64,000 nt of DNA from a bacterium (GCA_030428205.1 JAUIBK010000016.1:11454-75453); one strand, 5' to 3'; positions 61,995 through 63,842 are shown, numbered from the stretch's first letter. Made by a program: numbers and translations. The notes: generated by a model not told the origin, from the sequence alone.

Positions 61995-63842
61995 ATGGGT
62001 GTGACGTTTGGAAAAAATACGGCATCACTCGGTGCTCAGCGAAGACTCGGAGAGGCTACCCGTACGCTCTCTTCGGTTTTTGAGCGCTTAAGTAGTGGGC
62101 AGCGCATCATCCGACCGTCAGATGATCCTGCAGGCTTAGCTGTTTCATCAAAGCTCCACACACAATCAAAAATCTATGGCCGCGCAGAACGAAATGTTTC
62201 CGATGGGATCTCTTTGCTCAATATTGCAGATGGCGCTGCAAGTCAGATAGGGGAGCTTCTCACTCGGATGGCAGAGCTGGCCGAACAAGCAGCAAATGGG
62301 AGTTATTCTCAAACGCAAAGAAGAAATCTAAACGAAGAGTATCAAGCGCTCGATCTTGAGATTCGGCGTATAACTCAGACAACCTCATTTAATGGAATTG
62401 ATCTTCTCACGGGTGAATTATCGACGAAAGACCGTACAAGTGTTGTTTCTTCTGTGCTGAGTGCCTCTCCATTTCATACCGATGCTGAAGGAAGGTATGT
62501 TGTTTTTGGTGAGACCTCAGGAGATCTCGTTCTCTTTGATACTCAATCAGGAGACAATGTTCATCTCACAGGAGGAACGGCTTTTGATAAAGGAGTAGTT
62601 TCAGACGATGGTAAAGTTGTCTATACAACGAATGCGCAAGATGGCCTTGTTCTCTATGATATCGCCACTGAGCAATATACAACTATCATTTCATCTTCTA
62701 TCGGTGGAGGAGAGTTCTCGCTCAGTGCGGATGGTTCGACCGTAGTTTTTGAAACAAATTTGGATATAACCGATGGAGGTGGTCTAGGAGATGTCAATCC
62801 TACTATAGGAAATGACTCGTTATATACATTTGATACTGTCTCTCAAACCTTTACCTATCGGGCGAATCTCACAAATGGGTTGGACGATCTTGCCATTAGT
62901 TCTGATGGAGCATCGTTTGCCTTCATTGATAGTGCATCAGATATAAAAGTAGGAAGTCTCCTTGGAGGAGAAAGCACACTTACAACGGTTGCAAATTCAA
63001 GTGGAAACATTCCAAATCTCATCGGTATTTCATCCGACAGTACAGTATATTTTACGAGCAAGGACGATCTTACCGGTGATAATGGAGCTGGGGTTGAGCA
63101 AATTTTTTCTGGCTCATCTTCATCAACTCTTGCACAACTGACGGACTTCTCATCTGAGTCGCTCAACACAGGATTGCTCCCTACGTTATTTGGTAATGTT
63201 CCAACTCTGTCTGCAGATGGAAGCTCTCTTTATTTTATTGCTGATTATGATCCAAATGGAGAGAATTCTGATGGGTTAGATCAAGCCTTCCGGCTCGATA
63301 TTGTTCTTGGAGGAGTTACCCAACTCTCTCTCTTTGATGATGGGGCTTTTGGCATTACAGATCCCTTTGTGTTCTCTCGTGATGGAGGATCGCTTTTTGG
63401 ATATGACGGTGGTACGATTTATCACTATGATACTACGCCAGATGCTTTCTCCTTTGGCATTGAAACCGGTTCAGGCGAGGTTGGAACAATCCTTTCTCAG
63501 ATTCATGGTGTCCTCGCTGATGTTCGAGGATTAGGGGGGTATAGTATTTCGAGTCAGGGGAGTGCCCAAGCAGCTCTTGATTCGGTGCAAAACGGAATTG
63601 ATGGATTAGGGATTCTACAAGGTACTCTTGGTGCTGCTCTGAGCCGGTTAGAAACGGCAGGCTCTCTTGCCGGTTCGTACAAAGACGAACTCCAAACAGC
63701 CGAGAGTCGAATACTTGATGCTGATATTGCGGTTGAAACTGCCAACTTGCTTAGGCTTCAAATTGTACAGCAAGCAGCCACTAGTGTGCTTGCACAAGCG
63801 AACCAACAGCCTGAAATTGCACTCTCTTTGTTGGAAGGTTGA
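61995..63842 (+). CDS. fliC: Flagellin with conserved N- and C-terminal D0/D1 domains and a large central repeat domain
   Basis: N-terminus RLSSGQRIIRPSDDPAGLAVSS...DGISLLNIADGA...LTRMAELAEQAANG. C-terminus LGAALSRLETAG...AESRILDADIAVETANLLRLQI. The centre carries PD40/TolB-like repeats. The ORF track start is 61950. Confidence 0.75.
   Translation: MGVTFGKNTASLGAQRRLGEATRTLSSVFERLSSGQRIIRPSDDPAGLAVSSKLHTQSKIYGRAERNVSDGISLLNIADGAASQIGELLTRMAELAEQAANGSYSQTQRRNLNEEYQALDLEIRRITQTTSFNGIDLLTGELSTKDRTSVVSSVLSASPFHTDAEGRYVVFGETSGDLVLFDTQSGDNVHLTGGTAFDKGVVSDDGKVVYTTNAQDGLVLYDIATEQYTTIISSSIGGGEFSLSADGSTVVFETNLDITDGGGLGDVNPTIGNDSLYTFDTVSQTFTYRANLTNGLDDLAISSDGASFAFIDSASDIKVGSLLGGESTLTTVANSSGNIPNLIGISSDSTVYFTSKDDLTGDNGAGVEQIFSGSSSSTLAQLTDFSSESLNTGLLPTLFGNVPTLSADGSSLYFIADYDPNGENSDGLDQAFRLDIVLGGVTQLSLFDDGAFGITDPFVFSRDGGSLFGYDGGTIYHYDTTPDAFSFGIETGSGEVGTILSQIHGVLADVRGLGGYSISSQGSAQAALDSVQNGIDGLGILQGTLGAALSRLETAGSLAGSYKDELQTAESRILDADIAVETANLLRLQIVQQAATSVLAQANQQPEIALSLLEG

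Follow-up and report, generated by a model that had tools for sequence, protein, structure and literature searches.

The question raised by this locus, a gene on the plus strand at positions 61995..63842 of a 64,000-nucleotide stretch of bacterial DNA (GCA_030428205.1 JAUIBK010000016.1:11454-75453, called the window here and always meant at its full length), is what kind of protein is made when the two ends of a flagellin enclose a large central region of repeats, and whether such a protein of 615 residues would still be a subunit of the flagellar filament. An earlier interpretation made without database searches (the sequence-only reading) had proposed a flagellin with a beta-propeller-like repeat insert in place of the usual short variable domain. 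The answer argued for below is that the gene probably encodes a true flagellin, i.e. a filament subunit, whose propeller would form the coat of the filament, serving not as an enzyme but as a scaffold or a surface for binding. What carries this answer is a complete flagellin core combined with a confidently predicted propeller at the canonical outer-domain position, both of which are conserved throughout a family of related proteins.

Taking the termini first, residues 1-140 (61995..62414, +) make up the N-terminal D0/D1 helical core, as judged from Pfam Flagellin_N and from the secondary structure of the AlphaFold2 model (helices are predicted at 6-33, 45-100 and 106-129, with a short beta-hairpin after them), while residues 521-615 (63555..63839, +) make up the C-terminal D1/D0 helical core, with a match to Pfam Flagellin_C and a predicted helix at 521-614; the chain ends in ...LAQANQQPEIALSLLEG, as typical flagellins do. 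Both Pfam matches far exceed their cutoffs, Flagellin_N (PF00669) over residues 7-140 with E 4.5e-32 (111.4 bits against a cutoff of 26.6) and Flagellin_C (PF00700) over residues 529-613 with E 4.2e-16 (59.5 bits against 23). A sequence search of the PDB matched 76 flagellins, the best of them being Vibrio FlaA in an in situ filament (9n8g, E 1.6e-36), to which residues 3-143 and 516-614 could be aligned. When the full-length model was used for a Foldseek search, filament flagellins came top and seven-bladed WD40 propellers next, an order that fits a chimera. The flagellin identity originally proposed for both ends is thus upheld by profile searches. It should be added that the protein misses all of the clade-specific flagellin equivalog cutoffs in NCBIfam, which is to be expected because the lineage is a distant one.

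A competing identification would be that of a hook-filament junction protein of the FlgL type (hook-associated protein 3) whose insert is enlarged and which would be present in only about 11 copies per flagellum. The Flagellin_N fold is common to FlgL, the NCBIfam FlgL model TIGR02550 does match (E 4.7e-23), and some related proteins have been labelled “flagellin-like hook-associated protein FlgL” by the Joint Genome Institute. Nevertheless, the TIGR02550 match reaches only 82 bits, under its cutoff of 127 and well under the flagellin models, which are the best NCBIfam matches (up to 173 bits, E 9e-51), while the C-terminus has the flagellin signature and a full Flagellin_C match, and no flgK gene adjoins. 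Furthermore, flgL is single-copy, whereas two flagellin classes occur 2.8 kb apart on one related contig (L086, discussed below) and several flagellin loci are present in related metagenome-assembled genomes (MAGs). These comparisons support the identification of the protein as a flagellin, closer to flagellin than to the paralogous FlgL, and make a junction protein very unlikely.

The second part of the question concerns the central domain, which comprises some 360 residues (approximately 145-505, 62427..63509, +) and is placed between the N-terminal D1 hairpin and the C-terminal D1 helix, this being the canonical insertion point. Using a 52-sequence family alignment as input, AlphaFold2 gave a full-length model (mean predicted local distance difference test score, pLDDT, 84.8; predicted template modelling score, pTM, 0.79) in which helices extend across 6-129 and 521-614 and the region 148-503 is all-beta, as well as a model of the centre only (residues 138-528; pLDDT 85.5, pTM 0.86); the central domain has about 28 strands in seven groups of four. 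In a Foldseek search of the centre against the PDB the top matches were all propellers (E about 1e-11, probability 1.00), among them a bacterial WD40 domain (5yzv), G-beta, designed seven-bladed proteins and TolB, and no flagellins were among the matches listed in the centre's sequence search and two fold searches. The centre can with confidence be predicted to be a closed seven-bladed beta-propeller of four-stranded blades, of PD40 type, and its closest counterparts are the propellers of S9 peptidases and of the trilobed protease. The propeller-like character suggested at the outset is therefore matched by an ordered predicted fold, rather than by a disordered or low-complexity region. In a propeller the two chain ends lie close together, and because they adjoin in this way such a domain is well suited to insertion at the D1 hairpin.

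At the level of sequence, the blades can be followed as seven repeats, each marked by a turn of the form [S/T]-x-[D/E]-[G/S], at residues 163, 203, 244, 302, 346, 406 and 461, the spacing being 40-60 residues; boundaries set by such motif spacing are necessarily approximate. With that proviso, and with all coordinates on the plus strand, repeat 1 spans residues ~157-196 (62463..62582, with TDAEG at residue 163), repeat 2 residues ~197-237 (62583..62705, SDDG at 203), repeat 3 residues ~238-295 (62706..62879, SADG at 244, whose S, D and G do not vary within the family), repeat 4 residues ~296-339 (62880..63011, SSDG at 302), repeat 5 residues ~340-399 (63012..63191, SSDS at 346, and including a low-confidence loop at 392-399), repeat 6 residues ~400-454 (63192..63356, SADG at 406) and repeat 7 residues ~455-503 (63357..63503, SRDG at 461). 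The five motif strings quoted in the sequence-only reading are all present in the translation, and its description of the repeats as PD40/WD40-like was apt in that they are of PD40 type, although there are seven of them, corresponding to blades, rather than five. Further evidence as to their type comes from the relatives of the protein: PD40 is matched by 33 of the 52 family members at E <=0.01 (best 9.2e-10) and DPPIV_N by seven of the 52 homologues, faint matches to Tricorn_N and Tricorn_2nd appear in the annotations already available for homologues, and a phmmer search with the centre also retrieves generic PD40 proteins. One of the best non-flagellin matches to the centre is, as a separate observation, a conflict-system-like protein of 1418 residues (P0129) in which a TIR domain and an nSTAND1 NTPase are followed by a PD40/DPPIV_N propeller.

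A likeness to peptidase propellers leads to the question of whether this might be an enzymatic flagellin, comparable to the flagellinolysins, in which the propeller would form part of a displayed peptidase or other catalyst. In S9 peptidases the catalytic residues are located in a separate alpha/beta-hydrolase domain; here there is no alpha/beta-hydrolase or other catalytic Pfam domain, the propeller being flanked only by Flagellin_N and Flagellin_C, and the sequence contains neither a HEXXH motif nor a match to any Pfam peptidase family. The family alignment is also informative in this respect, since the only invariant central residues are S244, D246, G247, G305 and G492, i.e. structural Ser, Asp and Gly residues of the kind found in the repeat turns, and so short a list argues against a conserved catalytic or ligand site. 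Given that both a catalytic partner domain and a conserved site are lacking, a scaffold or binding role is favoured over an enzymatic one, and an enzyme seems the most improbable of all the possibilities considered here.

Turning to the family itself, a word-indexed search for relatives of the full-length protein returned about 50 full-length sequences (33-39% identity, 100% coverage, 580-655 residues), the few named ones being labelled as MAGs of Bdellovibrionales or Deltaproteobacteria. An exhaustive phmmer search using the centre alone, against 1.84 billion cluster representatives, gave 299 matches at E <=0.001, including 51 at <=1e-10; the best 150 of these 299 comprise about 60 family members of roughly 600-650 residues, in which the whole centre is matched at positions ~140-550, together with multi-stretch matches to generic PD40 proteins. 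To judge from these searches, the PD40-propeller flagellins are a real but small family. Mean pairwise identity within it is 0.51 for the N-terminal core, 0.44 for the C-terminal core and 0.26 for the centre, and despite this last figure the centre can be aligned end to end in more than 50 proteins; as read from the alignment, the combination of conserved termini with a fast-evolving and presumably exposed middle is the classic flagellin pattern. Two pattern-based scans of contigs gave results of a more general kind: one of genome contigs, using D0/D1 patterns from a 14-sequence full-length alignment, found at least 80 generic flagellin loci, with neither a PD40-type centre nor the genome of the window itself among the matches listed, and one of metagenome contigs, using the centre pattern [LIV]S[ASQ]DG[SN]T[VLI][AVI]F, confirmed at least 18 loci, these being generic PD40 with no flagellin termini among the matches listed.

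As to the organism, the polynucleotide phosphorylase (PNPase) encoded in the window has at most 74% identity to anything in the collection searched, and its nearest named relatives are in MAGs labelled Bdellovibrionales, Bdellovibrionota, Oligoflexia or Deltaproteobacteria. A second PD40-type flagellin, 35% identical to that of the window, was found in data from the same sequencing run, ERR3428546 (P0049, 635 residues, at L088:2570-4477). It has a GC content of 0.463 and a tetranucleotide correlation of 0.81 with the window, as against 0.89-0.94 for the window's own pieces; composition data of this sort are suggestive, but not conclusive, of a paralogue encoded in the same genome or in a sister one.

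The PD40 type is not the only class of flagellin in this lineage. The search for relatives also returned sister flagellins of about 600-930 residues whose centre consists of FG-GAP/VCBS repeats (P0056-P0120 among the relatives found), and in one of these, P0059, there are seven FG-GAP_3 stretches; repeats of this kind point to an integrin-alpha-like propeller. Genes of this type occur in GTDB genomes labelled Bdellovibrionales or Bdellovibrionota, often several per MAG, and on contig L086 one of them (5339-7183, +) lies 2.8 kb from a PD40-type gene (10001-11743). A profile-profile comparison of the PD40 and FG-GAP centres using hhalign detected no relationship between them (probability 1.4%). 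There is, in addition, a shorter class of flagellins, of 404-470 residues (~430). In a rough neighbour-joining tree of the D0/D1 cores, with a midpoint root and no support values, the root separates 55 of the 56 PD40-type cores from the cores of the FG-GAP and short types. Two proteins, P0065 (699 residues) and P0109 (678 residues), have PD40 repeats, yet their D0/D1 cores are placed among those of FG-GAP type, a hint that their outer domain was acquired independently or exchanged. Overall the tree suggests that the PD40 propeller was in the main acquired once and then inherited vertically, and that a separate event took place at least once. Two further matches, of ~770-805 codons, were seen in MAGs labelled “uncultured Bdellovibrionales” (L007:10001-12316 and L009:7786-10201); tblastn with the PD40 and FG-GAP centres gave no match inside these two spans, and the proteins may carry further types of outer domain. 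To have several flagellin genes would not be odd for this phylum because, as reported for Bdellovibrio bacteriovorus, six flagellin genes together build a single filament (PMC2791853).

Something needs to be said about the extent of the gene, since the open frame at 61950..63842(+) would encode 630 residues if translated from its TTG codon and 615 if translated from the ATG at 61995. The ATG is favoured because a Shine-Dalgarno-like AAGGA, read directly from the sequence, lies 10 nt before it (61980..61984, +), because it coincides with the first Met in 13 out of 13 of the closest homologues (M1 being invariant), and because the public gene call for this sequence in an independent assembly (Logan ERR3428546) has the same start and the same length. 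The better length is 615 residues, the coding sequence at 61995..63842 being complete with its stop codon, and the figure of 630 given in the sequence-only reading has to be corrected, the more so as the span that it reported, 61995-63842, itself yields 615.

If this gene product is a filament subunit, as is preferred here, then established flagellin biology would imply the following course of events. The chain would be exported unfolded through the flagellar type III channel and would polymerise through D0/D1 beneath the FliD cap; the propeller would then fold outside, so that the filament came to be coated with thousands of propellers. The role of the propeller would most likely be non-enzymatic: it would make the filament thicker or stiffer as a rigid scaffold, offer a multivalent surface for binding, or do both. 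The gene would be one of a small paralogous repertoire in uncultured Bdellovibrionota-like bacteria, made up of the PD40-propeller, FG-GAP-propeller and ~430-residue classes, whose members would be scattered singly round the chromosome, in line with what is known of the six-flagellin filament of Bdellovibrio bacteriovorus. As to dimensions, a rough estimate is possible by taking ~360 residues to occupy ~48,000 Å3 and packing them at 60% outside a core of ~60 Å radius, which gives an outer radius of ~95-110 Å; on this estimate from volume the filament would measure about 19-22 nm across, or a little more, and the 24 nm of the Salmonella filament (PMC6248924) is comparable.

There are, of course, several points that tell against such a role, and these are best taken together. 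To our knowledge no experiment exists for any propeller flagellin, and the fit of the propeller to the 11-protofilament lattice is only estimated, from the volume calculation just given. In the 615-residue protein itself the PD40 match falls below the Pfam threshold (11.9 bits against a cutoff of 20.9, E 0.23), as does a match to PQQ_2 (E 0.022); the repeat signal is nonetheless taken to be more than chance because the predicted propeller is a confident one. No flagellar genes were found among the Pfam-scanned open reading frames (ORFs) of at least 120 residues over the whole of the window, so that the earlier remark that no other flagellar genes lie nearby proves accurate, and at eight other family loci (L002/L003, L004/L005, L086, L087, L088, L107, L108 and L109) none of the flagellar machinery is represented in the gene calls, which cover up to 10 kb on either side. 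Because such genes were found neither in the 64-kb window nor around these eight homologues, a flagellar apparatus in the host organism is an assumption. Nor was any convincing sigma-28 promoter found upstream of the gene. The one candidate considered, TAAC-N16-GACGATAG, a relaxed match 97 nt upstream, was rejected as being at chance level (0.18 such matches are expected per 300 nt). No consistent sigma-28 motif was seen across six homologous upstream regions, no sigma-54 match was found upstream of the flagellin gene, and a scan for sigma-70 promoters and terminators gave nothing near it.

This isolation is also what lends some weight to a different interpretation, in which the flagellin termini would serve purely for export or anchoring, so that the protein would be a secreted propeller (an adhesin or lectin) delivered by way of flagellar type III export, or else a minor flagellin restricted to a short stretch of the filament. 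At all nine of the loci inspected, including the present one, the flagellin gene stands alone among housekeeping genes, unlinked to flagellar genes and in a neighbourhood that differs each time, and the lineage also has the flagellins of ~404-470 residues that could be the main subunit. On the other hand, D0/D1 is kept at full length, with ~50% identity across the family and inclusive of the extreme C-terminal polymerisation helix, where an export signal would require just the N-terminus, and scattered genes are compatible with a filament built from several flagellins, such as that described for Bdellovibrio (PMC2791853). An export module or minor flagellin must therefore be counted as unlikely, if rather less so than the other alternatives.

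The same negative findings might be read in yet another way, namely that the gene is a decaying or idle relic without function in a non-motile organism; the lack of flagellar genes in 64 kb and of a clear promoter or terminator would suit this well enough. A relic, however, would not be expected to have an ORF intact across all 615 codons or a confidently predicted fold, nor to belong to a set of more than 50 full-length homologues that, at 33-39% identity, keep the conserved termini and the seven structural motifs, and this explanation has very little to recommend it. A filament subunit that bears a propeller is accordingly still the preferred interpretation. A more far-reaching proposal, put forward here as a long shot, is that composite filaments, which an uncultured Bdellovibrionota-like lineage would build from paralogous flagellins carrying two unrelated kinds of seven-bladed propeller (PD40 and FG-GAP), might form a long multivalent lectin- or adhesin-like organelle, used for instance in the capture of prey or particles and not only for swimming, or that the propeller flagellins might be exported cargo and not lattice subunits at all.

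The rest of the window is a stretch of chromosomal housekeeping genes (ligA, gltX, pnp, tyrS, aconitase, NUDIX, DDAH and others), with thyA and then the dihydrofolate reductase gene folA downstream of the flagellin gene. Upstream lie two ORFs on the minus strand, one of 104 residues (60184-60498) with a prepilin- or TadE-like N-terminus (…RGGVIIEAALLLMLIV…) and the other of 392 residues (60511-61689) with a signal-peptide-like N-terminus, 10 Cys and a Cys-rich tail (…QCCTSPSECPCKF…). The pair had been described previously as a TadE-like small protein and a Cys-rich secreted protein; both ORFs exist, and the larger does have its 10 Cys and a signal-peptide-like start, whereas “TadE-like” is without profile support, since both ORFs are without a match in Pfam and NCBIfam. 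No counterpart of either was found in the other loci compared, including five of the eight homologue loci; at L004 an ORF of 104 residues does adjoin the flagellin homologue, its sequence being unrelated to that of the one in the window. On the strength of these comparisons the two upstream ORFs are treated as unrelated to the flagellin gene.

Some other ORFs in the window deserve a brief mention in their own right. A protein of 849 residues (14829-17378, minus strand) has matches to LDL-receptor class B (YWTD) and DUF5050, and one of 380 residues (13590-14732, plus strand) contains both a collagen triple-helix repeat and a right-handed beta-helix; each of the two could be a surface protein. 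An ORF of 1061 residues (9832-13017, minus strand) has no Pfam match at E <=0.01. Finally, a protein of 307 residues (59171-60094, plus strand) matches the Pfam family “DDAH_eukar” (eukaryotic dimethylarginine dimethylaminohydrolase) with 316 bits, in what is a bacterial genome.

The interest of the propeller flagellin lies in the fact that it is through its outer domains that a filament is in contact with the surroundings, and that no function is known for most of their folds. The propeller is a classic interaction scaffold, and one shown some 20,000 times per filament would make a surface of very high avidity. If assembly does occur, the protein would be a natural example of a large, rigid and modular domain that is tolerated both by flagellar export and by the filament lattice, which would be useful for the engineering of flagellar display, and the case also bears on the uses made of the flagellum by uncultured relatives of predatory bacteria.

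It remains to compare the protein with known systems. Flagellins from solved filaments (Salmonella FliC with its D2/D3, P. aeruginosa, enterohaemorrhagic Escherichia coli (EHEC) H7 and Geovibrio thiophilus, 9au6) have the same D0/D1 core and insertion point, and match the termini of the 615-residue protein best, both in sequence and in fold; they differ in that none is among the matches listed for its centre. The FG-GAP/VCBS flagellins (P0059, and L086 5339-7183) are alike in size (~600-650 residues), in having seven repeats and in a D0/D1 core that is ~50% identical, but their repeats are unrelated in sequence and their cores fall across the midpoint root. With respect to S9 peptidases, trilobed/Tricorn proteases and TolB, the difference is that here the propeller sits in a flagellin, without a partner catalytic or periplasmic domain; the propeller of TolB also superposes less well on the central domain (TMq 0.41). 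The flagellinolysins, i.e. proteolytic flagellins, similarly display a recognisable non-flagellin domain in the hypervariable region, but theirs is an HEXXH metallopeptidase, whereas the present protein is without a peptidase domain or motif. The giant flagellins of Bermanella and Oleibacter likewise have an enlarged surface-exposed centre, with thicker filaments expected, but they exceed 1000 residues by internal duplication and an insert (PMC6248924), while here there is a single propeller in 615 residues; since giant flagellins have been defined as those of >1000 residues (Thomson et al. 2018, PMC6248924), the suggestion in the sequence-only reading that this might be one cannot be sustained.

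The closest precedent is to be found in the AlphaFold survey by Fields et al. (2024, PMC11532411). According to its account, about half of all flagellins have folded outer domains, 682 structural clusters of which are described there, so that folded outer domains cannot be called rare among flagellins, which corrects the earlier remark on the rarity of giant flagellins with folded or enzymatic central domains; the known outer domains are mostly of Ig-like or beta-folium types, and a propeller is an uncommon feature that has already been catalogued. A literature search for flagellins with PD40, FG-GAP or beta-propeller domains found no dedicated study. No new principle is established by the present case, because propeller outer domains were already included in the 2024 survey, and what is added is the definition of a family, the restriction of its named members to uncultured Bdellovibrionota-like MAGs, and the presence of an unrelated FG-GAP sister on one and the same contig. 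The cluster concerned, #55, is named “WD40-repeats” in the survey, and a propeller-bearing flagellin is, going by that description, an already catalogued but uncharacterised kind (PMC11532411). Like the present protein, members of this cluster are flagellins with a predicted beta-propeller outer domain; the cluster is computational only, and as it is compared here by its description its propellers could be of PD40, FG-GAP or other type. The authors of the survey see the cluster as a rigid scaffold for interactions that was probably recruited from cellular proteins (PMC11532411), and the scaffold role favoured here agrees with that reading.

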